Below the pieces are notes generated by a model that was given only the letters and a program-made list of their open reading frames with translations, was not told the origin of the DNA and ran no database searches. The translations under genes were made by a program, and so were the position numbers. A DNA stretch of 64,000 nucleotides from an uncultured delta proteobacterium (GTDB taxonomy: Bacteria; Desulfobacterota; Syntrophia; Syntrophales; Smithellaceae), in assembly GCA_963753975.1 (NCBI GenBank), contig CAVWEH010000002.1:320001-384000 (forward strand), written 5' to 3'. This document shows positions 22,582-38,757 of this stretch, in pieces. Position 1 is the first letter of the stretch. Each line of letters begins with the position of its first letter.

Positions 22582-23370
22582 TTGTCAGAATTACAAGCGG
22601 CTGTACTCGGATTGGTTCAAGGATTGGGAGAGTTTCTGCCCATATCCAGCTCGGCGCATCTGGTCATAATTCCCTGGCTTTTTAAATGGAATGATCCGGG
22701 ACTAACTTTCGATATTGCGCTCCATATCGGTACTCTTATTGCGGTGGCAATTTACTTCTGGAAAGACTGGCTGAGACTAGTCACAATGGGATTGACAGAT
22801 GTTCGCAGCACGGAGGGTCGATTGTTTTGGTATCTGGTTGCAGCCTCTATCCCGGGAGCAATAGCGGGGTTTCTGCTGGAGAAAAAAGCCGAGACCATAT
22901 TCAGAGAGCCTATTTTAATCGCGGCTATGCTGATCCTATTGGGCGTTCTTTTGTACTGGACAGACCGGAAAAGCGCCAAGAATATTGAGATGAACAATAT
23001 AACTTTCAGAACCACTCTTTTCATTGGCTTATCTCAAGCGCTGGCGATTATTCCCGGGGTTTCACGTTCGGGGATCACTATGACCATGGGATTGCTTATG
23101 GGTCTGACCAGAGAAGGGGCAGCCAAGTTTTCGTTCTTACTATCTGCTCCCATTATATTTGGCGCCGCTCTGGTCAAGCTGCCTTATCTTATATCAAATC
23201 CGTCTGCGATAACTATAAATTTTGTTATCGGTACCCTGGTCTCTTTCGTTACCGGCATCCTCAGTATTGGATTTTTACTTCGCTATGTTCAGACCAAGAA
23301 TTTTCTTCCTTTTGCCTGGTACAGATTTATATTGGGCTCTTTAGTCATCGTCATTGTCTTGATACGCTAA
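22582..23370 (+). CDS. uppP: Undecaprenyl-diphosphate phosphatase
   Basis: GLVQGLGEFLPISSSAH, PGVSRSG, FSFLL; TTG start after GAGG. Confidence 0.95.
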   Translation: MSELQAAVLGLVQGLGEFLPISSSAHLVIIPWLFKWNDPGLTFDIALHIGTLIAVAIYFWKDWLRLVTMGLTDVRSTEGRLFWYLVAASIPGAIAGFLLEKKAETIFREPILIAAMLILLGVLLYWTDRKSAKNIEMNNITFRTTLFIGLSQALAIIPGVSRSGITMTMGLLMGLTREGAAKFSFLLSAPIIFGAALVKLPYLISNPSAITINFVIGTLVSFVTGILSIGFLLRYVQTKNFLPFAWYRFILGSLVIVIVLIR

Positions 23371-23470
23371 ATCACGGGTATGAACCCCAAAGCAAGCTGC
23401 GCAAGCTGCGGGATATTCCCTCCGCTTCGCGAGATTGTTATCGCCCCGCTAAGCTGCGCACGCGGGATAA

Positions 23471-23595
23471 TTCAACTTACAGATATTACTGCACTGTGTT
23501 TGTGGAGCACCTCGGAAACGAGCCGGTGGCTATTTTCAAAGACACGACATCCTGTACGGGATAATATCTGAGTTTCATTAGAATTGGAGTTTCAC
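23471..23595 (+). repeat. ~126-nt structured dispersed repeat, copy 1
   Basis: Aligns end to end with 30907-31032 and 38632-38757; the last 38 nt are identical in all three. Confidence 0.92.
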
Positions 23596-23603
23596 AATAA
23601 AAG

Positions 23604-23769
23604 TGTAGGTATAGTGGGGGAATCCTCACTTCAATCCCGCGACTTGGGATCCCACGGCTCCGGTAACCTAAAGGTCATCTGCGACCGGAGGAGGAATGCA
23701 CCGTAACTCGCAGGAGGTCGCGTTAGTACAGGGAGCCTTTGGCTCCTGCCGAAGGGGACTCCACCTACA
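23604..23769. other. 166-nt multi-stem structured element of unknown class
   Basis: Closing TGTAGGT/ACCTACA; nested GGAATCC/GGACTCC, CTTC/GAAG, CGCGAC/GTCGCG, CTCCGGT/ACCGGAG and GGAGCC-TTT-GGCTCC stems. Confidence 0.6.
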
Positions 23770-23959
23770 AATCAAAAGTTGCATACCTGTGGGATGAAGT
23801 ATTTGTATCTTCCCGTAATGTTGATTTTCTTATTTTCCCAAATTGCACAACATTTTAATCGGAAATAATCAAAAAACTACAGAACTCTGGCTTGACATGT
23901 GGTATAAGTATCAAAGGGTAGATAAGCGGCAAACATTAGCTATTCTGAAAGGATTAGTG

Positions 23960-26041
23960 ATGGACTTCGATGAAGGTTACCGACTGGCAACCGAACACTC
24001 TAACGAGGGTGTGATTATCGTTAGCAGAGATAAGCGCCTCTTTATCAATCAGAGATTAATAGAATTGGCCGGTTATCATACCGCTCAAGAGTTTGATAAA
24101 ATACCGTTTCTTTCCACCGTTCATCCGGACGACCGGAAAAAAGTTAAAGAGATAATAAGGAAGAGACAATCGGGAAAACCTGCTCCATCGCTCTATGAAT
24201 TTAGGTTCCTCAGACCTGATGGTTCCATTATCTATGTTGAGGTCTCAGCGTGCTCCATCACCTATATGGGACAACCGGCATCACTAGGGTATTTAAGAGA
24301 CATATCTGATCGTAAACAAATAGAGGAAAAATACCGCACTATACTGGAAGATATGGAAGAGGGATATTTTGAGGTTAACCTTGCCGGTAATTTTACCTTC
24401 GTTAATGACGCGGAGTGTAGGAATCTGGGATATTCCCGGGAAGAATTGATCGGGATGAACAATCGGCAATATACAGATAAAGAGAATGCAAAAAAAGCCT
24501 TTCAAGCGTTTAGCAATCTTTACAAGACAGGAGAATCATGTGAAATTTTTGATTATGAAGTTACCAGGAAAGATGGAGCCAAGGCAATTGCTGAACTGCT
24601 TGTATCTCTTGTAAAAGATTCGAAAGGAAAGCCCATTGGATTCCGTGGACTTTCACGTCAAATCACCGAGCGCAAGCGAGCGGAGGAGTCGCTGCGAGTG
24701 AGCGAAGAGAAGTATCGTTTGGTCGTAGAGAACGCAAAGGAAGGTATCATCATCGCCCAAGATCTTAATTTGGTCTTCGTCAATCGTGCTGCTCTAGACC
24801 TGATCGAATATTCCGGAGAGCTATTAGTCAAACCTTTCACAGACTTTATCCATCCCGATGATCGTAATATGGTCGTCGATCATCATATAAGAAGGCTGAA
24901 AGGTGAGGAAGTTCCCCTTGCTTACTCTTTTCGGCTTATCAGCCGAGATGGAACCGTAAAGTGGGTTGAATTTAATACGGCTGTTATTCAATGGAAGGAA
25001 AGACCCGCTACCCTGAGTTTTCTGAATGACATCACGGCCCGCAAGCAGGCCGAGGATAAACTGCGAGAGAGCGAGGAGAGGTACCGAACCATTATTGAAA
25101 ATATGCAGGAGGGGTATTTTGAACTTGACCTTGCCGGTAATTATACATTTGTTAATGATGCGGAGTGCAGAAATATGGGATATCCCCGAGAGGAATTGGT
25201 CGGAATGAACAACCGGCAGTATCAAGATGAAACAACCGCCCAAAAAACGTATCAACTCTTCAGCAGGCTCTACAGAACAGGTGAACCGGTTAAAGCATCA
25301 GATGTGGAAATTATCAGAAAAAACGGAACGAAAGGTTTTAACGAAATTTCGGTATCTCTTATCAGGAATAACGAAGGTAAACCAATCGGATTCCGCGGTA
25401 TTTCTCGGGATATTACCGAACGCAAGCGGGTTGAGGAAGAACGTAAGCAGAGCTTTGAGCGGATGAGAAAAGCTCTGAGAGCCACTGTCCAATCCATCTC
25501 CCTGGCCGTGGAAATGAAAGATCCCTATACTTCTGGTCATCAACGGCGGGTATCCGATCTGGCCTGGTCGATTGCCGCAGAAATGGGCTTATCGGCAGAC
25601 TGCCAAGACTTTATCCGCACCGCCTCCTCTATTCACGACATCGGCAAGATAGCCATTCCGACGGAAATACTTAGCAAGCCGACAAAACTGACTGATCTGG
25701 AATTAAGTTTGATTAAAACACACGCCCAGTCCGGATATGATATTCTAAAAGACATCGAATTTCCCTGGCCCGTAGCCGATGTCGTCCTTCAGCATCATGA
25801 ACGGATGGATGGATCCGGCTATCCTCAGGGACTTAAGGGAGATGATATTCTCCTGGAGGCCCGTATCATGGCTGTGGCTGATGTGGTGGAGGCCATTGCA
25901 TCTCACCGGCCCTATCGACCGGCACTGGGAATCGATCTTGCGCTGAAGGAGATTTCCGAGAATAAGGGCATCCTTTATGACGCAGATGCCGCGGATGCCT
26001 GCCTAAAATTATTTCGGGAGAAAAGCTATCGGCTTTTATAA
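23960..26041 (+). CDS. Four-PAS-domain HD-GYP cyclic-dinucleotide phosphodiesterase
   Basis: Four PAS/PAC units; KDPYTSGHQRRV, HDIGK, HHERMDGSGYP, HRPYRP; start placed after the AAAGGA RBS. Confidence 0.92.
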   Translation: MDFDEGYRLATEHSNEGVIIVSRDKRLFINQRLIELAGYHTAQEFDKIPFLSTVHPDDRKKVKEIIRKRQSGKPAPSLYEFRFLRPDGSIIYVEVSACSITYMGQPASLGYLRDISDRKQIEEKYRTILEDMEEGYFEVNLAGNFTFVNDAECRNLGYSREELIGMNNRQYTDKENAKKAFQAFSNLYKTGESCEIFDYEVTRKDGAKAIAELLVSLVKDSKGKPIGFRGLSRQITERKRAEESLRVSEEKYRLVVENAKEGIIIAQDLNLVFVNRAALDLIEYSGELLVKPFTDFIHPDDRNMVVDHHIRRLKGEEVPLAYSFRLISRDGTVKWVEFNTAVIQWKERPATLSFLNDITARKQAEDKLRESEERYRTIIENMQEGYFELDLAGNYTFVNDAECRNMGYPREELVGMNNRQYQDETTAQKTYQLFSRLYRTGEPVKASDVEIIRKNGTKGFNEISVSLIRNNEGKPIGFRGISRDITERKRVEEERKQSFERMRKALRATVQSISLAVEMKDPYTSGHQRRVSDLAWSIAAEMGLSADCQDFIRTASSIHDIGKIAIPTEILSKPTKLTDLELSLIKTHAQSGYDILKDIEFPWPVADVVLQHHERMDGSGYPQGLKGDDILLEARIMAVADVVEAIASHRPYRPALGIDLALKEISENKGILYDADAADACLKLFREKSYRLL

Positions 26042-26225
26042 GATGCAGCTGCCAAGCCGATAGATAAAACCTAACTTAAGGACACTGAAGAGATTTTTAA
26101 TTGAGAACTTTAAAAGCAAAGATCAGGCAGAAATAAAATCACCAAACCCCACAGATAAAAAATGACGAGAATAAAAAAACAAATTTTTTTACGAAGCTTC
26201 GAGATGGGAAAGGAGAACACAAAAG

Positions 26226-27104
26226 ATGCCGGACATAGATGGAATCAAAGATGCTAAGATGTTTTATACCGATACACCGCAAAAGACAGAGGGGTTTTTC
26301 CTCAAAGGCTCGAGTTCCCTGGATTGGGGGATGAAAAACAGGCTGGCGCGGATATTTAATCCCGTCTCCGGCCGAACGGTTATGCTGGCTATCGATCACG
26401 GTTATTTCCAGGGACCCACCACCGGTCTGGAACGAGTCGATATCAATATCCTTCCTTTAGTGCCTTACGCGGATACTCTGATGCTGACACGGGGGATTCT
26501 CCGTAGCGTTATACCGCCTTCCGCATCTCCATCCATTGTGCTCAGAGTTACCGGAGGCGCCAGTATTCTCCAAGAGCTCTCCAATGAAGATATTGCCGTT
26601 GATATCGAAGAATCCATCCGTTTGAATGTTTGTGCCATGGCTGTTCAGGTTTTTATCGGGGGCGAGCACGAAAAGGAGTCGATCATCAACATGACCAGGA
26701 TGGTTGATCTCGGTACCCGTTACGGCATTCCTACTCTCGCCGTGACCGCGGTAGGCAAAAACATGGCCCGGGATGCAAAGTACTTCCGGCTGGCTTGCCG
26801 GATCTGTGCTGAGCTCGGTGCCCACTATATCAAAACTTACTATGTCGATAAAGGTTTCGAGACCATCACTGCATCCTGCCCCGTGCCAATCGTAATGGCC
26901 GGCGGCAAAAAAATACCCGAACTGGACGCCCTGACTATGGCCTCTAACGCGGTTAAGAAAGGCGCCGCCGGTGTCGATATGGGGCGCAACATTTTCCAGT
27001 CGGAAGCACCGGTTGCCATGATTAAAGCGGTGCGGGCTGTCGTCCATGACAATGAGACTCCCAAAAAAGCTTTTGATCTCTACAATACATTAAAGAATAA
27101 ATGA
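26226..27104 (+). CDS. lsrF: LsrF-like class I aldolase/thiolase
   Basis: [58 protein letters not shown]. Confidence 0.9.
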
Positions 27105-28231
27105 AAGTTGCCTACTGGTACAACAACAAAGACATCCGGATCGAAGAAGTGCCGACTCCAAAACCCGGCCCCAAGGAGATGCTGGTCAAGGTTATTTCCT
27201 GCGGCATCTGCGGCAGCGATATTGTAGAATGGTACCGGCTCCCGCGGGCGCCGCTGGTGCAGGGGCATGAAATAGGAGCACAGGTTATCGCCCTCGGCGA
27301 TTCTGTAAATAAATATAAATTGGGTGACAGGGTATTTATCGCTCCTAAAGTGCCATGTCTGAAATGCTTTTATTGCGGAAATGGTCACTATCCTCAATGC
27401 TCTGAAATTAAAGAAAGGCTACCCGGTGGTTTTGCCGAATATATCCTGGTTCCCGAGATTCTTGTAGAGCGCGGAACATATCTACTGCCTGAAAATATTA
27501 GCTACGATCAGAGTACCTTCATTGAACCCCTGGCCTGCGTTGTCAGGGCTCAGCGGCTGGCCGGAGTTCACCCTGTTAGAGACAACGAGTGCTTCGCGAA
27601 TCCAGATGGCGGCATTAGACCAACGCAATCTGAAACTTCCAGATCAAACCTTCGGCAGGAGTCGGGGGCTTTCTCTAACGGGGTGAAAAAGGGGCAGGCT
27701 GTGATGGTCATTGGCTGCGGCATGTCCGGGCTGCTCCATATAAAGCTGGCAAAGGCTGCGGGATGTAAAGTAATCGCCGCCGACATTAATAAAGTGAAAC
27801 TGGAATTTGCCCTACGCATGGGGGCCGACGTCATCATCGATGCGGTGAATAATGTTCAGGAGCGACTGGTTCTCGAAAATGGCAAAAAAGCCGACGTCGT
27901 AATTTTATGCGCTTCGGTTGATTCCGCAGTGAAGCAGGCATGGGGATGCGTAGATAAAGGCGGCGTGATTGTACTCTTCGCTGTCCCCGGACCGGACAAG
28001 AAGATTGTCGTTCCGATCAATGATTTCTGGATGAAGGAAATCACCATCATCACTTCTTATTATTGCGGGCCTCCCGATATCGCTCACGCAATGAAGCTGA
28101 TCGAATCGGGCGAAATCGTAGTGGATGATCTGATCACGCACAGGCTTCCCTTAACCGATATCGTTTACGGTTTTCAGTTGGTATCAGACGGCCGGGAATC
28201 AATCAAAGTAATCATTAAACCCAATCAATGA
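27101..28231 (+). CDS. Zn-dependent (sorbitol/threonine-type) dehydrogenase carrying a 39-aa in-frame insertion
   Basis: CGICGSD, GHE, CLKCFYC...C, EPLAC, IGCGMSG; insertion HPVR...SNGV. Confidence 0.9.
27569..27685. mobile_element. 117-bp MITE-like element inserted in frame, copy 2
   Basis: TT-CACCCTGTTAGAGA ... TCTCTAACGGGGTG-AA (15/16 inverted match including flanks); removal restores [12 protein letters not shown]. Confidence 0.85.
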
Positions 28232-28360
28232 ACAAAGAAACTATAAAAGTCGCGAAGCCGGATTACTGACCGGGCTTGCGGGGCTGCAAAGATTAAAAAA
28301 CATAATCCTTGATTTCTTATCGAGTCTGGTATAGGAAGCACAATCACAAATTTATTGAGA

Positions 28361-28408
28361 CTCCCCTTGCCTGTGGCCGTGACCATGGGCTTTAGAGCCG
28401 AAAGGAGG
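28361..28408 (+). promoter_or_regulatory. Putative S6:S18 autoregulatory rpsF leader
   Basis: CTCCCCTT anti-SD, CCTGTGG/CCATGGG hairpin, and a CCG immediately before the AAAGGAGG SD. Confidence 0.55.
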
Positions 28409-28413
28409 AATTT

Positions 28414-28899
28414 TTGAAACGATACGAAGTTACAGCTATAGTTAAATCCGATTTACCCGATGACGATATCACCGCCCTGATCGACCGCATTCAGAAAATC
28501 ATTACCAAGCGTAAAGGTCTGATTGTTAAAATTGACAAATGGGGCAAAAGACGCCTCGCTTATGAGATCAACAAACAAAAGGACGGTTATTATTTTCTTA
28601 TCGACCTTGTTGGTGACGGTTCCATTATCGATGAAATTGAAAGAAACTATAAAATTGACGACCGCATTTTGAAATTCATTACAATAAAAAAAGAAGGTGC
28701 CGTAACTCGCGAAGGCATCGACCAGGAAATCGTAGCGGCAGAAGCAAAACGGGCTCAAGCCCGCATAGAAACCGATTCTACCGGTTCCTCTGTTGAAGAA
28801 AAAGTTATCCGTCAGATAGAAAAAGCTTCCGCCGATACAAAAGATATAAAACCACGCAGACCTTCTCCCAAAAAATCTGTTAAAAAAGACGAAAAATAA
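28414..28899 (+). CDS. rpsF: 30S ribosomal protein S6 with C-terminal extension
   Basis: MKRYE, WGKRRLAYEI, GYY; TTG start after strong SD. Confidence 0.95.
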   Translation: MKRYEVTAIVKSDLPDDDITALIDRIQKIITKRKGLIVKIDKWGKRRLAYEINKQKDGYYFLIDLVGDGSIIDEIERNYKIDDRILKFITIKKEGAVTREGIDQEIVAAEAKRAQARIETDSTGSSVEEKVIRQIEKASADTKDIKPRRPSPKKSVKKDEK

Positions 28900-28917
28900 A
28901 AAAAAGAGGAATAAGCA

Positions 28918-29187
28918 ATGGAAACAACCAACGGAGACAGACCGGTTCGACATCCCCAAAAAAAATTTTTCCATCGAAAGAAGTTTTGCCGTTTTTGCAC
29001 GGATTCGAACTTAAAAATTGATTACAAATATCCCGCCATTCTCAATAGTTTCGTAACCGAGAGAGGCAAGATTATGCCCCGTAGAATTACCGGTAATTGT
29101 TCCAGGCACCAAAGGGAGTTGGCTGTCGCGATTAAACGCGCCCGCGCTATTGCGATTATGCCTTTTGTCACCGCCGAAGGAAGATAA
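28918..29187 (+). CDS. rpsR: 30S ribosomal protein S18 (Zn-ligand form)
   Basis: [31 protein letters not shown]. Confidence 0.97.
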
Positions 29188-29202
29188 AAGAAATTTACAG
29201 AT

Positions 29203-29248
29203 TAAGCTGTCGGCCTTTTCCGGCAACGAAAAAGGCCGGCTAACTTTT
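29203..29248 (+). terminator. Possible intrinsic terminator/attenuator after rpsR
   Basis: GTCGGCCTTTT/AAAAGGCCGGC stem followed by T-rich sequence. Confidence 0.45.
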
Positions 29249-29267
29249 AATTTTCTAAGCAGTCACA

Positions 29268-30251
29268 TTGAGCAGGTTATCGATTTTGAAAACTTCCGGC
29301 AGCTTCTTTCTCCATAATCCCTTTCTCAGAATTTTATTAATTATTTTTTTTTCTGTAGCGGCGGCGGCTTTCGTTCCGATTTTCGGCTCTATTTTTCTTC
29401 TATTTCTCCCGCTGCTTTTGTTTTTTTGCGGCGTGTCCAAAGGCATGGTTAAATCATCAGGCGCTTTGCTGATTTCTTTACTACCGCTTTTTCTCCTTTC
29501 TCATTTTTTTCAATTTGATACACTTTATCTCGCAATATTAACGACGGGAATTGCCGGTATTTTAATTGCCGCGTTAGTTTTTAAAAATGTATCTATCGAA
29601 AAAACGGTACTTTATACTTCCCTTTTTATCATCACATCCATCTGTGCTTATTTCGTTTATGGCGGTTATAGCCAAAATATTAACCCGTGGCATCTCGTTC
29701 AAAAATTTGTTACCCAAACAGTTGAAGAAAACATAAAAATGTATTCCCTGCTTACCACCGACAAAGATTACATTAATTTTATAAATGACAACAAGCAGAC
29801 CATAATCAATTTCTTCACCGGCATTTTTCCTTCTTTAGTTATCGTCGCTTCCGCTTTTATTGTCTGGATTAACATGCTCATGGGAAGAGATTTGCTGCAC
29901 AGGCAAAGCATTTTATTTCCTCAGTTGGAAGGCTTATCCCGCTGGAAAGCTCCGGAATTTATGATCTGGATATTTATCGTCTCCTGCGCCCTCCTTTTTG
30001 TTCCCTTTGAGCAAATAATCATTTTCAGCCGGAACATATTGATTGTGACTTGTTTTGTCTATTTACTGCAAGGCTTTGCTATCATTAGCTTCCTTTTCCA
30101 AAACAAAAAGGTGCCGTATTTTTTTCGTTATCTTTTTTACTTTTTAATTGCAGTTCAGCAAATTCTTATGATACCAATAATGGTCGCCGGAATATTCGAT
30201 ATTTGGATCGATTTCAGGAGATTTTTTCAAAAAGACGAGACAACTACTTGA
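29268..30251 (+). CDS. DUF2232/YybS-family membrane protein
   Basis: Polytopic; YLLQGFAI and GIFDIWIDFR motifs; usual position between rpsR and rplI; start uncertain. Confidence 0.85.
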   Translation: MSRLSILKTSGSFFLHNPFLRILLIIFFSVAAAAFVPIFGSIFLLFLPLLLFFCGVSKGMVKSSGALLISLLPLFLLSHFFQFDTLYLAILTTGIAGILIAALVFKNVSIEKTVLYTSLFIITSICAYFVYGGYSQNINPWHLVQKFVTQTVEENIKMYSLLTTDKDYINFINDNKQTIINFFTGIFPSLVIVASAFIVWINMLMGRDLLHRQSILFPQLEGLSRWKAPEFMIWIFIVSCALLFVPFEQIIIFSRNILIVTCFVYLLQGFAIISFLFQNKKVPYFFRYLFYFLIAVQQILMIPIMVAGIFDIWIDFRRFFQKDETTT

Positions 30252-30290
30252 TAATTTTGCCACTATTACTTTCACCAACGGAGGGGTTTC

Positions 30291-30743
30291 ATGAAGATAA
30301 TTTTGAAACAGAGCGTGTCTTCTTTGGGCAAGGCCGGGGATTTAATCAAAGTACATGACGGTTATGCCCGCAACTATTTGATTCCCAAGGGCTTAGCCCT
30401 AGAAGCCAATGAAAAGAATATTAAATCCTTTGAGCATGAGAAAAGGAATATTCTGCAAAAAGCCGAAAAGGAGTACAAAGGCGCTGAAGACTTGGCTTTG
30501 GTTTTAGCCAATGTCACCCTTTCCTTTTCACGCAAAATCGGCGATCAGGATAAAATCTTCGGTTCGGTGACAACAAAAGACATCGAAGAAGCGCTGAAGG
30601 AAAAAGGTTACAATATTGACCGCAAAATGATTATCCTTCACGAGCATATAAAATCACTAGGCGAATTCAAGGTAAAAATCAAGTTGACAGCCGGTGTGGA
30701 AACTGAAATCAATTTAACCGTTATTGGCGAATCACAGGTATGA
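30291..30743 (+). CDS. rplI: 50S ribosomal protein L9
   Basis: MKIILK..LGKAGD..V.DGYARNYLIP, FGSVT, IKSLGEF. Confidence 0.97.
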   Translation: MKIILKQSVSSLGKAGDLIKVHDGYARNYLIPKGLALEANEKNIKSFEHEKRNILQKAEKEYKGAEDLALVLANVTLSFSRKIGDQDKIFGSVTTKDIEEALKEKGYNIDRKMIILHEHIKSLGEFKVKIKLTAGVETEINLTVIGESQV

Positions 30744-30794
30744 ATCATAAAGCAAGCATTGGAATTATTTCATGAGCTCGTTACTAGTTATTAT

Positions 30795-30905
30795 ACCCCT
30801 GCTTATGAGGGATAATTCGGCTAAAAAACTTCAATTCGCCTATAGTGACCTTTAGGTTATTCGCTTTTGAAGTTTGAGTCTCATTACCCTCCGCTGCGCG
30901 GGATT
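30795..30905 (-). repeat. Modular hairpin repeat unit (minus strand) with a nested 20-bp insert
   Basis: Reverse complement ...TAATGAGACT-CAAACTTCAA..TTGAAGTTT-TTAGCCGAATTATCCC..GGGG, the same grammar as 34433-34850. Confidence 0.75.
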
Positions 30906-30906
30906 G

Positions 30907-31032
30907 TTCAACTTACAGATATTATTGCACTGCGTTTGTGGAGCACCTCTGTAAGGAGCCAGAGGCCATCTTCAAAGACGTGACATCCCGTAACGGGATA
31001 ATATCTGAGTTTCATTAGAATTGGAGTTTCAC
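30907..31032 (+). repeat. ~126-nt structured dispersed repeat, copy 2
   Basis: Aligns with copies 1 and 3; ends 7 nt before the dnaB ATG. Confidence 0.92.
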
Positions 31033-31039
31033 TAATAAA

Positions 31040-32395
31040 ATGAGAGATATAGATCCATCTTTATACAAAGTTCCACCGCAAAATATCGAGGCCGAACAGT
31101 CTATTCTAGGCAGCATTCTCCTGGAAAACAGCGCCGTCAACAGCGCTCTGGAAATTCTTACCAAAGATGATTTCTATAACGAGGCACACCGCAAGATTTT
31201 TAGCGTCATCATCGAGCTTTCTGAAAAAAACGAAGCCGTGGACCTCATAACTTTAAGTAACGCCCTTAAAGATAAAAGCCTGTTGGATTCGGTCGGAGGC
31301 ACATCCTACCTCGCCTCTTTGGTAGATAACGTCCCCTCGGCGGCAAACGTTGCCAATTACGCAAAAATAGTCAAGGAAAAAGCGATTCTGCGCGGATTGA
31401 TCGGTTCGGCTACGGAAATCATCGGCAGTTGTTATGAACCCGGCTCCGACGTTGACGAGGTGCTGGATAAAGCTGAACACAGAATTTTTGAAATTTCCGA
31501 AAATAAAGTGCGTCCTTCTTTTTACCCGATTCGCGAGATAGTAAAGGATAGTTTCCGGTCAATCGAAGACCTTTTCTCGCGCAAAGAGCTGATTACCGGC
31601 GTGCCCACCGGTTTTGAAAGAATCGATGATTTGACTTCCGGCTTACAGAAATCCGAATTGATTATTGTCGCTGGACGTCCCAGCATGGGGAAAACCGCTT
31701 TCGCCCTGAACATCGCCCAGTTTGCCGCTATGGAAGCGCAAACACCCGCAGCTATCTTTTCTCTGGAAATGTCTAAAGAACAGTTGGCCTTCCGTATGCT
31801 GGCCTCGGAAGCTAAAGTCGATTCCCAGCGGCTGAGAAAAGGATTTTTAGGGGAGACCGATTGGCCGAAACTGACGACCGCCGCCGGCCGTCTTTCCGAA
31901 GCCCCACTCTTTATCGACGATACTCCCGCTATCACTGTTTTGGAAATGAAGGCTAAATCACGAAGGCTCAAAGCCGACACCGGACTGGGACTGATTATCG
32001 TGGACTATATTCAACTGATGCGTTCCGGCAGCTATCGCGAATCGCGCGAGCAGGAAATATCGGAAATCAGCCGTTCCTTAAAAGCGCTGGCCAAAGAGCT
32101 GCGAGTGCCGGTAATTGCCCTTTCCCAACTCAACCGCAAAGTGGAAGACCGCACCAACCGTCGCCCGCAAATGGCGGATTTAAGGGAATCCGGCGCCATC
32201 GAGCAGGACGCCGACGTTATCGCTTTTATTTACCGCGACGAAGTTTATAATAAATCGGAAGATAATACGGAAAAAGGATTAGCGGAAATTATCATCGCCA
32301 AACAAAGAAACGGCCCGACCGGGACCGTCAAACTTGCCTTTTTGGAAAAATTTACCAGCTTCGAAAATCTGACTAGAGCCGAAAGCACATCTTAA
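31040..32395 (+). CDS. dnaB: Replicative DNA helicase
   Basis: PPQNIEAEQS, AGRPSMGKT, FSLEMS, IVDYIQL, LSQLNR, LRESGAIEQDAD, KQRNGPTG. Confidence 0.98.
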   Translation: MRDIDPSLYKVPPQNIEAEQSILGSILLENSAVNSALEILTKDDFYNEAHRKIFSVIIELSEKNEAVDLITLSNALKDKSLLDSVGGTSYLASLVDNVPSAANVANYAKIVKEKAILRGLIGSATEIIGSCYEPGSDVDEVLDKAEHRIFEISENKVRPSFYPIREIVKDSFRSIEDLFSRKELITGVPTGFERIDDLTSGLQKSELIIVAGRPSMGKTAFALNIAQFAAMEAQTPAAIFSLEMSKEQLAFRMLASEAKVDSQRLRKGFLGETDWPKLTTAAGRLSEAPLFIDDTPAITVLEMKAKSRRLKADTGLGLIIVDYIQLMRSGSYRESREQEISEISRSLKALAKELRVPVIALSQLNRKVEDRTNRRPQMADLRESGAIEQDADVIAFIYRDEVYNKSEDNTEKGLAEIIIAKQRNGPTGTVKLAFLEKFTSFENLTRAESTS

Positions 32396-32509
32396 TTACA
32401 TATTATAAGTATCACGAAAAACCTTGAGCATAAATACTTCCGCATTTCAGAAGTTCTCGATTTACAGACTCAGACCGGCAAAATAATGATGATCGTTTTC
32501 CGCTAGGTG

Positions 32510-33301
32510 TCACGAACTCATTAAAGATGTGAGCATGCCGGCGAAAACCTCGGGTTTGATACTGACGTTTCCCGTAAACGGATAATCCAACACGATAATT
32601 GTAAAAAGAGTGAGCGCAATCATTGCGGCAAGAAGAGACGTCATTATTATATGCGGAACAAGATTTTCCGTACCAAACATCATAGTGAAGGCAATGGTAA
32701 TAAAACTGCCGGTGATGAGAACAAAATAGAGAAGCGGATGAATGCCGGAGCTCGCATAGACAATGCGGTGCCTCCTCATTTCTCCCGCCTCGTTCATTTT
32801 TTTCACGGATTCCATCAGAAATATTTTTTGCGTTTCGTTTTTCGGTTGAAAACTGCCATACAGAAGCCACAATTTTTCCTGTATTTTCTGCACTTTGGCA
32901 CTTCTCTGCCCCTTGGCCATAATCTGCCACTCGTCGTTGATAATGGCATTTACATAGTTAGTCAGTTCGCTTTTGAGCCGGGCGCGAAATCCGGCAGGGA
33001 AAGGGGTGGCGTCACGATAAAGAGACGCGATGCAATTAGCCTCATTATTCGTTACTTCACTTGCTTTGTCGAAATCCTGCCAGGTAATGATGACGGTGAA
33101 AGCAAGGAGAACTGCGTAAATTACGCCGAGGGCGGCAAAAATAAAACCGGCAATATCGTTGTGATGCTTGCATTTGCCATGCGGATAAAATTTCCGAATA
33201 ATGATAAGACCTATAATAGACAACGCTACATAGACGGCAACTATGAAAAAACCAAGCAGCGGCATCGGCACGTGGATGAGCAAAATTTGAATGAATGACA
33301 T
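32510..33301 (-). CDS. DUF4239 (bestrophin-like) membrane protein
   Basis: HNDIAGFIF..LGVIYAVLLAF, EA..LYR, LDYPFTG. Confidence 0.8.
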   Translation of the reverse strand: MSFIQILLIHVPMPLLGFFIVAVYVALSIIGLIIIRKFYPHGKCKHHNDIAGFIFAALGVIYAVLLAFTVIITWQDFDKASEVTNNEANCIASLYRDATPFPAGFRARLKSELTNYVNAIINDEWQIMAKGQRSAKVQKIQEKLWLLYGSFQPKNETQKIFLMESVKKMNEAGEMRRHRIVYASSGIHPLLYFVLITGSFITIAFTMMFGTENLVPHIIMTSLLAAMIALTLFTIIVLDYPFTGNVSIKPEVFAGMLTSLMSS

Positions 33302-33425
33302 AATTTTCTCCTCACAACTTGCAGTTTAAGAATGTATTACAATTAATCTCGAAGGTATTCTTTGGGAACACCATACGACGTTCCATTTAAAAGTTAATGT
33401 TTTTGTGCCACCGTTCCCGTACCCC

Positions 33426-34271
33426 CTATTTATCCGGCTTCAAATACGGCAGGGCCAGTTGCACCTTTTTCAGGGCTTGCTTTTCGATTTGGCGCGCCCT
33501 CTCCCGCGTTATGTTGAACTTATTGCCTATTTCCTGTAAGGTTTCGGGATTGTCCGCCATTACGCGATTGAGGATAATATAACTCTCTCTTTCGCTAAGC
33601 TTTTCCAGAGCGCTGGCAATATTGCGTTTAACCAAACTCCTTTCTTCATTTTTAATTAAAGCTACTTCCTGATTATCACCTTCATAAGCAAGCAAATCAA
33701 TATGTGCCGTATCTCCTTCGTCGCCGATAAACTCGTGCAAGGATACATCGCGCGAACCCATGCGCAAGTCCATTTCCGCCACTTCGGAACCTTTGACTCC
33801 CAGAGATTTGGCAATCTCGGCAAATTCCGGATTTTTTTTCGAGAGCGTCTGTAGTTGTTTTTTAGCCTGGCTCAATTTGAAGAAAAGTTTTCTCTGCGCC
33901 TGTGTTGTACCTATCTTAACTATGCTCCAGGACTTGATGAGATAATTTTGAATATAGGCGCGAATCCACCATACCGCGTAAGAAATGAGGCGATAGCCTT
34001 TATACGGATCAAATTTTTTCACGGCGTGAATAAGGCCGATATTGCCTTCCTGAATTAAATCGGCGAGTTTGAATCCGTAGTTGCGATATTCGTGGGCAAT
34101 CTTGACCACAAAGCGTAAATTAGAAACGACGAGCTTTTCGGCGGCTTCCATGTCATTGTGCTTTTTCAGGCGCACCGCGAATTTGAATTCCTCTTCCGGA
34201 GTTAAAAGCGGAAAGCGATTAATTTCCGCGATATATAAATCAAGAGTGCCGATTACTGCAGGCAGCTTCAC
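33426..34271 (-). CDS. rpoH: RNA polymerase sigma-32 family factor
   Basis: SNLRFVVKIA, DLIQEGNIGL, YAVWWIRA, RpoH box TTQAQRKLFFKL, TRERARQIE. Confidence 0.93.
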   Translation of the reverse strand: MKLPAVIGTLDLYIAEINRFPLLTPEEEFKFAVRLKKHNDMEAAEKLVVSNLRFVVKIAHEYRNYGFKLADLIQEGNIGLIHAVKKFDPYKGYRLISYAVWWIRAYIQNYLIKSWSIVKIGTTQAQRKLFFKLSQAKKQLQTLSKKNPEFAEIAKSLGVKGSEVAEMDLRMGSRDVSLHEFIGDEGDTAHIDLLAYEGDNQEVALIKNEERSLVKRNIASALEKLSERESYIILNRVMADNPETLQEIGNKFNITRERARQIEKQALKKVQLALPYLKPDK

Positions 34272-34432
34272 CGATCAGGCCTCCTTTAAACCTCTACGCA
34301 GCTTAAAGCTCGTGAATAATTGCGAAAATAAATTCTGAGCGTTAACAGACCCTCTTCTCAAAGCTCTATCCTTAATTGATTGCTCACAATAGGCTTTTAT
34401 CCAACTAAATTTTTTCGGTCAAGAAATATATT

Positions 34433-34850
34433 AATGAAACTCAAATTTCATGAGCGAAGCAAAATGAAATTTGTTAGTCGAATTAATCCCGCAAGCTAAG
34501 CACAGCGGGGTTAATGACACCGTCCTCGGAAGCAAAAGCGAACTGAAACTGGCTAGCTGAATTATCCCGTAAACACAACGGGATAATGAGGCTCAAATAT
34601 TACAAACATTGTACAGTAATATTTGCTAATGGAATCAATGACACTCAAATTTCAAAAGCACAGCGCATTGAAATTTGTAATTGGAATTAATCCCGCAAGC
34701 GAAGCGCAACGAGGTTAATGACACCATCTTCATGAGCGAAGCGAAATTAAATTTGCCAGTCGAATCAATGAGACTCGCTGAAGACGGACGGAGTTCCGTT
34801 TGAAGCGTAAGTGGAATTGATCCCGTCAGCGCAGCGTATCGGGATTTATG
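34433..34850 (+). repeat. Tandem array of six modular hairpin units
   Basis: AATGA(A/C/G)RC starts at 34433, 34513, 34585, 34637, 34717 and 34767; each has a variable stem ending in an AGTCGAAT-like motif; four carry an ATCCCG..CGGG-type hairpin. Confidence 0.85.
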
Positions 34851-34870
34851 CTTTAATAACAAGTCTCTTC

Positions 34871-34899
34871 TTGACAGGCAAACGATCAATGTTTATTCT
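34871..34899 (+). promoter_or_regulatory. Putative sigma70 promoter for the diadenylate cyclase
   Basis: TTGACA-17 nt-TATTCT. Confidence 0.6.
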
Positions 34900-34925
34900 A
34901 TAAACAAACCATCTAAGGGATTGAA

Positions 34926-35798
34926 ATGAAATCGATAAATAAAACCATGATTGAGCATGCCGTAAAAATTGCGTATGCCGTCAAGGCCGATTCATTGCTC
35001 GTCTGCGTTGATATCACACGGGATATTGCCGCGATAGCAGAAGAAATGAAAAAGCCTATCGGCGTAATTATCGTTACCCGTGAGGATGAAGAACTCTCCG
35101 AAGATATTAAGAAATTTGCCAAAAAATTGGATGTTCCCAACGTTAATCTGACCCGTGTGGGAAAAATTAAAATAGCTGTAGCCAAAGGAATAGTTTTAGG
35201 CTTTTTTAAAAGAGGAGATAAAATAGTCTGCTTGAGCGGTGTACCGAAGTTTGGTTATGCCGACAGCATCATTGTCATTGATGTCGGCAAAGAATTTGAA
35301 ATTTTAACATCTGATTTCATCAACGACGTTATCGAAAATGTTCAACCGGAAGTTTTTAACACTGCTCTGAATATCGCCTGTGAATTGGCTGCTCAAGGAC
35401 GCGAAAGCAAAAAAGCGGGAACAATCTTTGTGCTGGGGGATGATGAGAAAGTCATGCAGCTTTCCCAGCAAATGATTATCAATCCCTTTTTAGGATATTC
35501 GGAAGAGCAACTTAACATTTTGGATCCGGAACTCGAAGAAACGATCAAAGAATTATCGGCAATCGACGGCGCCTTTATCATCAAAGAAAACGGGGTCCTC
35601 GTTACCGCCGGAAGACATCTGAATGCCGCCGTGGACAGCCGTGATTTTCCGGCCGGTTTGGGGAGCCGCCATATCGCCGCCGCCGGTATCACTAACGTTA
35701 CCAAAGCACTGGCTATAGTCATTTCCGAATCTTCGGGAAATGTAACAGTTTTTAAAAACGGCAAACTTTTTGTCACTATTGAAAAGCCGGTAGAGTAA
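34926..35798 (+). CDS. Diadenylate cyclase, DacZ-like (N-terminal regulatory region + DisA_N/DAC domain)
   Basis: GRE..AGTIFVLGD, INPF.GY, KELSAIDGAF, GLGSRHIAAA, ISES. Confidence 0.85.
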   Translation: MKSINKTMIEHAVKIAYAVKADSLLVCVDITRDIAAIAEEMKKPIGVIIVTREDEELSEDIKKFAKKLDVPNVNLTRVGKIKIAVAKGIVLGFFKRGDKIVCLSGVPKFGYADSIIVIDVGKEFEILTSDFINDVIENVQPEVFNTALNIACELAAQGRESKKAGTIFVLGDDEKVMQLSQQMIINPFLGYSEEQLNILDPELEETIKELSAIDGAFIIKENGVLVTAGRHLNAAVDSRDFPAGLGSRHIAAAGITNVTKALAIVISESSGNVTVFKNGKLFVTIEKPVE

Positions 35799-35965
35799 TG
35801 AGACCAAAATTTCAGAAACGAAATGAATAACCTAAAGGTCATCTGCGACTAAAATTTGTTAGTCGTAGTGAGACTTTCTGAAAACGAGCATAACGAAGTT
35901 TGAAGAGTTAGTCGAACTATCCAATAGCCAAAGGCTATTGGAAATTATCCCGCAAAGCAGGGTAG
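35797..35965 (+). repeat. Two-unit cluster of the modular hairpin family with a nested 22-bp insert
   Basis: AATGAGAC..TTAGTCG, AGTGAGAC..TTAGTCGAA, TCCAATAGCC-AAA-GGCTATTGGA, ATTATCCCG..GGG. Confidence 0.8.
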
Positions 35966-35977
35966 TCAGGATAAACT

Positions 35978-38572
35978 ATGCGTTTTGATAAATTCACCTT
36001 AAAAGTCCAGGAAGCGATTCAGGAAGCACAGACGCTCGCTGGCTCCTACGGCCATCAAGCGATTGAGCCGGAACATCTGCTGGTTTCTTTTTTGCGGCAG
36101 GAAGAAGGCATTGTCGGAGCTATCCTCGAAAAGCTGGGCGCCCTGCCTAGTCAGATTGAACAGAAGCTTGTCGGTTTTCTCACAAAACAACCGCGCGTGG
36201 AGGGCTCCGCCACATCGGAAGCATATCTCTCCGGTCGCCTGAATAAAATTTTCGATAAAGCTCTCACCGAAGCCGCCCGTCTCAAAGACGAATACGTGAG
36301 CGCGGAACATGTTTTGATTGCGATAAGCGAAGAGAAAACCGGTGAAGCCGCAAAGATCTTACGTCAAGCGGGAGTGACCAAAGACAGTATCTTTAAAGTT
36401 TTGGTGGAAATCAGGGGCAATCAAAGAGTTACCGATCCTAATCCGGAAGGGAAATACCAAGCTCTGGAACGTTACGCCAAAGACTTCAATGAACTGGCTC
36501 GTAAAGGCTCTTTTGATCCGGTAATCGGGCGGGATGAAGAAATACGGCGCATCATGCAGGTGCTTTCGCGCCGCACAAAAAACAATCCGGTCTTGATCGG
36601 AGAGCCGGGTGTTGGAAAAACGGCGATTGTCGAAGGGTTGGCGCAACGCATTGTCAACGGCGATGTGCCGGAAAGTCTGAAAGACAAACGCGTAATCGGC
36701 CTCGATATCGGATCTTTGGTTGCCGGAGCGAAATATCGCGGTGAATTTGAAGAAAGGCTCAAAGCCGTTCTCAAAGAAGTTGTCGGTTCCAACGGTCAAG
36801 TCATTCTCTTTATCGATGAAATACATACTGTTGTCGGTGCGGGAGCCGCCGAAGGGTCAGTTGACGCCTCCAACATGCTCAAGCCCGCACTAGCGCGGGG
36901 CGAGTTACGCTGCGTCGGCGCCACGACACTTAATGAGTACCGGAAGTACATCGAAAAGGACGCCGCTTTGGAGAGGCGTTTCCAGCCTATTTTCGTCAAA
37001 GAGCCCACGGTCGAAGATACCATTGCCATTTTAAGAGGACTGAAAGAACGATACGAGGTGCATCACGGCGTCAGAATTAAAGATTCCGCAATCATCGCCG
37101 CCGCCACACTTTCCAACCGCTATATTTCCGACCGCTTTCTGCCCGATAAAGCGGTCGATCTTATTGATGAAGCGGCATCCCGTTTGCGAATAGAGCTCGA
37201 CAGCATGCCTTCGGAAATCGACGCCATTGACCGGAAAGTCATCCAACTGGAAATCGAACGACAATCCCTGAAAAACGAAACGGACAAAATCGCCAAAGAA
37301 AGACACAGCAAAATTGATAAGGAGCTGGCGGAGCTCAAAGAAAACATGAAGCAGATGAAATTGCACTGGTCTAATGAAAAGGATATTATAAAAAAGATTC
37401 AAAGCATTAAGAGCCAGGAGGAGGCATTAAAGATAGAAGAGACCAATGCCCAGCGCGAAGGCAATCTCGCCAAAGCCGCTGAAATCCGTTACGGAAAACT
37501 GGTAGCTTTGAACAAACAGTTACAAGAAGATCAGCTAAAACTTGAGGAAATCCAAAAAAACAAACAAATGCTCAAAGAAGAAGTGGATGCTGAAGACGTA
37601 GCCAAAGTCGTCTCCAACTGGACAGGTGTTCCGCTGGCGCGGATGATGGAAAGCGACGTACAAAAACTCATCCACATGGAAGAGCGGCTCAAACTGCGGG
37701 TTATCGGCCAGGATGAAGGTATTCAAGCGGTTTCTGCGGCGCTGCGGCGCGCACGCTCCGGACTGCAAGATCCCAACCGGCCCATCGGTTCATTTATTTT
37801 CCTGGGGCCGACCGGCGTCGGCAAAACCGAACTGGCACGCGCTTTGGCGAAATTCATGTTTGACAATGAGCAGGCGATGGTGCGCATTGACATGTCTGAA
37901 TACATGGAAAAACATGCCGTGGCCCGGTTAATCGGCGCCCCGCCCGGTTATGTCGGCTATGACGAAGGCGGTCATTTAACGGAAACCGTAAGACGCAAAC
38001 CTTATTGCGTCTTGCTGTTCGACGAAATCGAAAAAGCTCATCCCGACGTCTTCAATATTTTATTACAGATACTCGATGACGGGCGGCTCACCGACGGACA
38101 TGGCCGAACTGTCGATTTCAAAAACACAATCGTGATTATGACTTCCAACGTGGGCGGACAATGGATCCAGGATTCAATTTTGGACGAAAAGGAGAAACAA
38201 AACCGGTCAATGGAAGCCCTGCGCGCTACTTTCAAGCCGGAATTCTTAAACCGTATCGACGATATTATTATTTTCCGCACCTTGACGCCTGAAGATATCA
38301 ACCGCATTGTCGATATTCAATTGGCTCTTATTGATAAAAGGCTCAAAGACCGCAAACTCAGCATCGAATTGACAGATGAAGCAAAAAAATATATGGCTGA
38401 AGTCGGCTACAGCCCCGTATACGGCGCCCGCCCCCTCAAGCGTTCGTTGCAGAAAATGATTCTGGATCCGCTGGCGCTCGAAATACTGGCCGGTAAATTT
38501 ACTGAGGGAGATCGAGTTGTAGCAAGCTTATCTAAAAAAGGTGAAATAACTTTAACTAAGAAGCAGAAATAG
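35978..38572 (+). CDS. clpB: ATP-dependent chaperone ClpB
   Basis: Two AAA+ modules ([16 protein letters not shown]), long middle coiled coil, [14 protein letters not shown]. Confidence 0.98.
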
Positions 38573-38631
38573 AAATCACGGGGATAAACCCAAAGCAAAT
38601 TTGGGTTCATACCATTCGCTTTGTGGGACAA

Positions 38632-38757
38632 TTCAACTGACAGATATTACCGCAGTGCGCTTGTGGAGAACCTCTGTAAGGAGCCGAAGGCTATTTTCAA
38701 AGACATGACATTCCGTAATGGGATAATATCTGAGTTTCATTAGAATTGGAGTTTCAC
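38632..38757 (+). repeat. ~126-nt structured dispersed repeat, copy 3
   Basis: Aligns with copies 1 and 2; directly precedes the htpX SD. Confidence 0.92.

Follow-up and report, generated by a model that had tools for sequence, protein, structure and literature searches.

The 126-nt element that occurs three times in the window, i.e. the whole 64,000-nt stretch of DNA analysed here, is best explained as a short hairpin repeat of intergenic DNA with a decayed right-end piece (~60 nt) of a PATE (palindrome-associated transposable element), a gene-less mini-transposon of the IS200 type, in its loop. The chimera likely arose once and was likely copied between arrays, and we assign this reading a probability of about 0.8. 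The three repeats are likely to be mobile junk DNA copied between sites, and not regulatory or catalytic RNA. The first-pass annotation had proposed a plus-strand structured RNA carried inside a minus-strand unit of a modular repeat scaffold. The second half of that proposal is borne out, as the insert does lie inside a unit of such a scaffold. The RNA half is most likely wrong: the insert corresponds to a PATE right end with minus as its active strand, breaks of the inner helices exceed covariation, and the element is absent from orthologous spacers.

The source genome (G000, 2.43 Mb, 95% complete), in which the window is C2:320001-384000, carries 16 long copies of the element, including the three in the window. 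Sequence comparison recovers these three at the positions reported before and in a single orientation (Table 1), with pairwise identities of 87-89%. The neighbouring genes had also been named correctly, as judged from Pfam matches: uppP/bacA is followed by a PAS/HD-domain gene, rplI by dnaB, and clpB by an M48 peptidase gene (htpX). Copy 1 lies ~250 nt ahead of the HD gene, with a second repeat in between.

Table 1. Positions of the repeat features in the window and the composition assigned to them.
Feature	Position	Strand	Composition and context
Copy 1, long module	23471..23595	+	tag, left arm 23480-23489, 12-nt loop, insert, right arm 23562-23570, right tag, half terminal module
Insert of copy 1	23502..23561	-	decayed family-2 PATE right end, CCAC end at 23502, plus 5-bp hairpin ending in PATE left-end tip
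Copy 2, long module	30907..31032	+	arms 30916-30925 and 30999-31007; 7 nt before dnaB start
Insert of copy 2	30938..30998	-	PATE right-end remnant
Copy 3, long module	38632..38757	+	arms 38641-38650 and 38724-38732; before htpX ribosome-binding site
Insert of copy 3	38663..38723	-	PATE right-end remnant
Host hairpin array behind uppP, ending in copy 1	23370..23595		not present behind uppP in G011, G010, G005
Host hairpin array at rplI-dnaB junction, ending in copy 2	30730..31032		junction empty in 11/14 congeners
Host hairpin array in clpB-htpX spacer, ending in copy 3	38574..38757		G011 empty; G005, G013 short hairpin at same place
Stand-alone family-2 PATE	23635..23764	+	directly behind copy 1; TCCCG start after target TCAA (23631-23634), CCAC end

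The element is a chimera, in which the outer stem and the 38-nt end come from a host family of hairpins and the extra ~60 nt from a second family. The outer stem described earlier is the host arm; it is present in all three window copies, as are the hairpin variants that had been quoted. A geometric search returned 100 host modules in G000 versus one in a base-shuffled genome. The commonest form is a short relative, in which the same arms close a 12-nt loop. The span is 32 nt in 59 of the 100 modules. Perfect 10-bp arms are present in 46 of these 59, and 33 arm sequences can be told apart. Read from the sequence of the minus strand, the module contains a 2-nt bulge, tandem G.A/A.G pairs and GAA-type loops. 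Tandem G.A pairs and GAA-type loops are stable in single-stranded DNA. The modules are lined up head-to-tail in mosaic intergenic arrays. The window holds one further array of this kind at 34430-34770, with two or three related modules between two divergent genes.

The last 38 nt of the element had been described as invariant and as a possible protein-recognition site. They are identical in the three window copies; genome-wide the invariance fails, only 5 of the 16 long copies being identical here. The segment consists of the host right tag and the right half of the terminal module, which explains why GAGTTTCA is doubled in it. It also terminates two short copies without insert in G000, and in many relatives other modules stand in its place. 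It is neither invariant nor specific for the long form. Two further observations concern the host. At a metagenome locus (L040:300-400), the loop of a host hairpin consists of nothing but the small ATCCC..GGGAT hairpin; this version derives from the long form by deletion and makes one long palindrome. In G000 (C5:49194-49478), a 94-aa open reading frame resembling a GIY-YIG protein, with the motif judged by eye, adjoins a host module with its end.

The ~60 nt of the insert are matched by a second family, family 2, which occurs as ~110-bp stand-alone elements at ~20 loci in G000. With a profile made from seven stand-alone copies, three long copies are hit (positions 2-58, E 1e-6 to 1e-4), and the three window inserts align both with family 2 and with an IS200 right end. 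The family is gene-less and without terminal inverted repeats, and has palindromes near both ends. Empty sites in relatives lack the element cleanly, with no duplicated base, at three of four loci, and the fourth is diverged but of the right length. The guide and target counts, which are partly built in because the left guide was part of the search patterns, as was the last target base for 80 loci, are as follows for the TCCCG..CCAC strand: the 88 left ends are preceded by TCAA in 44 cases, TTAA in 25, TTGA in 4 and TCGA in 4, amounting to a TYRA target in 77 of 88, and the left hairpin has GAAT at its foot in 71 of 88. TYRA is seen in the empty sites as well. At the right end, GGAG stands at the hairpin foot in 46 and the CCAC end is present in 53 of 77 sequences, a set that includes long copies and noise. 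The pairs GAAT/TCAA and GGAG/CCAC fit the guide/cleavage rule of IS608.

A tnpA-bearing counterpart is found in a relative, G065, which has nine matches to an IS200-type tnpA, seven of them with a stop. In the eight right ends of this IS200 that were compared, the GC-rich hairpin is homologous and has a TCCT loop as in family 2; the guide GAAG and the end TCAC again obey the rule. Among the ends of 48 Y1 loci, only this right end resembles family 2, while its left end and its TTAT target differ; no autonomous element with a family-2 left end was found among the loci compared. Since the empty sites are clean, the target is TYRA, the guide/cleavage pairs fit and the right end is IS200-like, family 2 falls within the sequence definition of a PATE. 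On these sequence grounds we conclude that family 2 is a PATE, with the minus strand as the active one in the long copies of the window. Two additional signals do not enter this conclusion. Guide AAAT and target TTAA covary (7:4 versus 16:38, Fisher p=0.04), a result not relied on because some rows are orthologous. The G.T versus A.C counts in family-2 hairpins give no strand signal (16:28 and 27:29, nine interrupted copies included).

The exact left-end pattern of family 2 occurs in 3 of 401 genomes of the phylum, all of them inside the family, and family 2 is also found in several Nitrospirota MAGs. Named records with the repeats mostly belong to Smithella, Smithellaceae or Syntrophaceae or are delta-proteobacterial MAGs, and no viral contig matched either of two exact patterns of the repeats. 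Nesting is seen in several forms. The stand-alone PATE in the window carries a 21-nt micro-hairpin (23664-23684) in the loop of its left hairpin, and further copies of this unit lie in the left or the right hairpin of PATEs and in the loops of host modules. Whole host arrays sit at one fixed point in the middle of family-2 PATEs (G000 C4:299050-299310, L125, L143, L146, L153), the reverse of the nesting in the long copies. At L330 and L332 of G065 (~1380-2040), a tnpA-bearing IS200 lies at TTAT inside family-2 PATE copies, and at L328 an IS200 right end is abutted by a host array. As for genes nearby, a tRNA-Sec gene begins 4 nt behind a family-2 copy (L066:31-126), and a tyrosine recombinase in three pieces adjoins a degenerate copy at L397 (G000 C2:602300-603300).

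In the long element the PATE right end reads on the minus strand, and its CCAC end falls exactly at the boundary between host arm and loop. The left hairpin and its guide are missing, so that the 60-nt insert does not have two intact ends with guides, and the right guide GGAG has decayed to ATAG, ATGG or AGAG in G000, being intact in one G006 copy. PATE movement would have occurred as single-stranded DNA through an IS200-type TnpA, either in trans or in the past. In the founding event a PATE most likely landed once at the arm/loop boundary of a host module, where TYRA often sits (11 of 59 standard host modules). The inserted PATE would then have lost most of its left end, perhaps between two internal CGCGGG repeats, leaving a remnant that, with its decayed guide, presumably could no longer move by itself and became a passive passenger of the host module. 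Since then the disabled chimera has likely passed from array to array through recombination or conversion at the arms that the modules share. At its left junction it differs by one base from a clean TnpA insertion, TCCCG being preceded by ATTA and not by TYRA. An intact PATE inside a host loop was not found, either in 116 genomes of the family searched with one pattern or at the loci examined.

The distribution of the long form indicates that this is nested mobile DNA, probably spread by module swapping. All long copies have both junctions in common and fall into three sequence subfamilies, with an insert length of ~60 nt throughout, and near-identical sub-variants are present at distant loci of G000. 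DNA relatives of copy 2 are patchy, being found in 7 of 14 congeners and in 21 of 36 family genomes searched. At the rplI-dnaB junction, 14 congeners show a bare junction (11), a simple array (2) or an array ending in a short hairpin (1), and never the long form. The clpB-htpX spacer was compared in five genomes: G011 is empty, G005 and G013 have a short hairpin in place, G010 has another module, and the long form is present in none of the four that are evaluable (G006 excepted). Behind uppP, the three matching genomes have no repeat and a different gene next (long form 0/3). Two further loci give 0/5 and 0/3 relatives with the long form; one of the two has the short hairpin in place in G010 and G005. 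In total there are three loci at which the short hairpin of the relatives is located exactly where G000 has the long one. The arrays also touch coding sequence: at 30730-30743 of the window the array insertion overlaps the gene end, rplI being three codons longer in G000, G011, G010 and G006, and at 38560-38580 the clpB frame continues into the array in G005 and G013.

The search for a mover gave no candidate, as no Y1 transposase was found in G000, which is 95% complete, or by tblastn beside any of 143 loci. TnpB (PF01385) has no match in G000, so a tnpB upstream of the right end, as expected for an omega/reRNA, is lacking. The cognate RAYT (PF01797) has no match in G000 either and is also absent from G002, G005, G010 and G011, four of the seven repeat-rich congeners. 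The proteins that recur beside 80 family-2 loci are only PAS and ABC proteins, products of orthologous housekeeping genes and spurious frames over the repeat. The fixed geometry of the host, with arms that are perfect yet freely varying, its head-to-tail arrays, the occurrence among relatives of both forms, short and long, at one position of an array, and the left tag, which often reads RYYYAAC, would suit attC-like recombination sites of an unrecognised cassette system, the long module being a cargo cassette swapped by a dedicated enzyme. The probability of this seems very low to us. The integron attC core RYYYAAC...GTTRRRY lacks its right part in the host, where GTTTCAT is found instead; the best match to the integron integrase (TIGR02249) in G000 scores 81 bits against a cut-off of 265; the cargo is non-coding debris; and no enzyme gene was found to recur beside host arrays.

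It is doubtful, if conceivable, that the host hairpins of Smithellaceae are cargo cassettes of an undescribed system. Its enzyme, distinct from TnpA, RAYT, TnpB and integron integrases, would recognise the hairpins by their shape (10-bp arms, 2-nt bulge, tandem G.A) and exchange entire modules between arrays in place, together with anything that the loop contains. If this were true, the 126-nt module, tagged by its PATE fragment, would be a natural tracer of module swapping. Movement of the host is not explained by the PATE reading of the insert.

To return to the RNA claimed at first, the insert may have begun as PATE debris and now be a selected plus-strand structure, its GNRA hairpin serving mRNA stability or translation of the gene behind. 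The covariation bears directly on this. We collected 63 distinct long copies from G000, relatives and 34 metagenome matches (2 of the 34 being chance), and placed 61 of them on a tree, two with a foreign left arm being left out. The host arm, with four compensatory events, is the only helix that covaries. The inner stem, for which covariation between copies had been claimed, has no compensatory event versus 24 breaks, and its C-G pair is C.A in 23 of 61 copies. The CTCY..GGAG hairpin fares better in its loop, which conforms to the described GNRA in 47 of 61 copies with a varying N position, than in its stem, where two compensatory events stand against 11 breaks; two copies rebuild this hairpin with other pairs. 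For the GCC/GGC helix the ratio is 1 to 16. The ATCCC/GGGAT hairpin is nearly invariant, in part because the search pattern held GGGAT. Stem-breaking substitutions in additional copies, which the first-pass annotation itself had named as evidence against an RNA motif, therefore far exceed compensations in the inner helices. The small hairpins seem to be mostly refoldings of the decaying PATE hairpin. The RNAalifold consensus of 16 copies picked for diversity contains the host stem, ATCCC/GGGAT, a 3-bp GCC/GGC helix and a weak helix across the left junction, and retains neither the inner stem nor the GNRA hairpin.

Folding does not prefer a strand. The G-U pairs on the plus strand had been taken as evidence for that strand, and yet neither strand stands out: G-T exceeds A-C only modestly (80:51, 35:24, 16:10), the plus-strand excess being clear at a single loop-closing pair. 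For the whole element, the mean fold z-score as RNA is -2.6 on the plus and -2.9 on the minus strand; folded as DNA, either strand gives -3.2. The z-scores of single copies are unremarkable (plus -0.5 to -1.5, minus -1.6 to -2.4). The search against Rfam that had been recommended yielded only tRNAs in the window at the gathering score and nothing for copy 2 at E<=10; ten family-2 loci searched together with copy 2 at E<=10 or 5 gave no match on the elements. The long copies in G000 are mostly in sense orientation (12:2, p=0.013), the ratio being 25:20 among short arrays and 6:5 in family 2, but other genomes do not show this bias again (downstream 13:9, upstream 5:10). The repeats show no replication-strand bias in G000, and copy 2 no excess of promoters or terminators. 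The sequencing runs offered small shares (at most 0.12) and contigs of relatives. In one RNA run, host modules and the form shorter by 60 nt are present; these contigs carry neither strand nor level.

Besides the GNRA loop with its two compensatory events and the sense orientation in G000, a selected RNA would account for an insert length held at ~60 nt in three diverged subfamilies and for copies 2 and 3 lying within 20 nt of start codons inside probable operons. These points are countered by the break-to-compensation ratios of every inner helix (24:0, 11:2, 16:1), the lack of an Rfam match, the missing long form at orthologous loci, the orientation bias confined to G000 and the folding without strand preference. 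In addition, no gene context of the long form is conserved across relatives, the neighbour genes being unrelated. We thus regard the RNA reading as unlikely, with a low probability that it owes to the conserved GNRA loop, and retain the nested PATE fragment as the explanation of the insert.

Two aspects appear to be new. The first is a PATE family with a TYRA target in Smithellaceae and some Nitrospirota. The second is that a fragment of a PATE could be traced as it spread in the loop of another repeat. A limited literature search, of less than full print coverage, listed no paper that mentions Smithella. With no more than three copies to compare, nested mobile DNA can evidently pass for a covarying RNA motif, a useful warning for motif-discovery pipelines. 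The long module is also a marker for the in-place remodelling of hairpin arrays in genomes without a recognisable transposase.

Mosaic arrays of REP elements are known (PMC3116915). The host, too, consists of multicopy extragenic palindromes in mosaic arrays built by insertion into or beside units, as described for REP, REPIN and BIME elements (PMC3116915). It differs from them in having no RAYT in G000 and no GTAG tag, and in that the arm sequence is free whereas the geometry is fixed.

The ends of family 2 resemble those of the IS200/IS605 family. IS608 of Helicobacter pylori (PMC3201880, PMC5934647) enters the DNA 3' of a tetranucleotide, with nothing gained or lost. Its guide/cleavage pairs are GAAT with TCAA at the right end and AAAG with TTAC; the first and second bases of the guide pair with the second and first bases of the site. 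Our own reading, drawn from these two pairs, is that guide base 4 pairs with site base 4. IS200/IS605 ends (PMC5934647, PMC3201880) and family 2 have in common that insertion is 3' of a tetranucleotide and makes no duplication, that each hairpin has a 4-nt guide at its 5' foot, that the right cleavage site lies ~10 nt behind the hairpin, and the GAAT-TCAA pair. Unlike IS200/IS605, family 2 has neither tnpA nor tnpB in the element or in G000. In contrast to IS608, it is the left end of family 2 that has the GAAT/TCAA pair, and the hairpin there is similar to that of a right end.

The PATEs of Haloquadratum walsbyi are among the closest known systems. According to PMC3119063, they share with family 2 the lack of genes and of terminal inverted repeats, similar palindromes near both ends, the lack of target duplication, a 4-nt target, core deletions and nesting with small repeats; core deletions and the nesting of small elements are described there. 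Dyall-Smith et al. faced the same puzzle there, namely PATE insertions with disrupted tnpA genes (PMC3119063). The 60-nt insert alone, unlike the PATEs of that organism in the same account (PMC3119063), is not a complete PATE. In Haloquadratum walsbyi small mobile repeats enter the palindromes of PATEs (PMC3119063); here, a PATE right end is also found inside the loop of another repeat, and the chimera seems to have spread as a unit.
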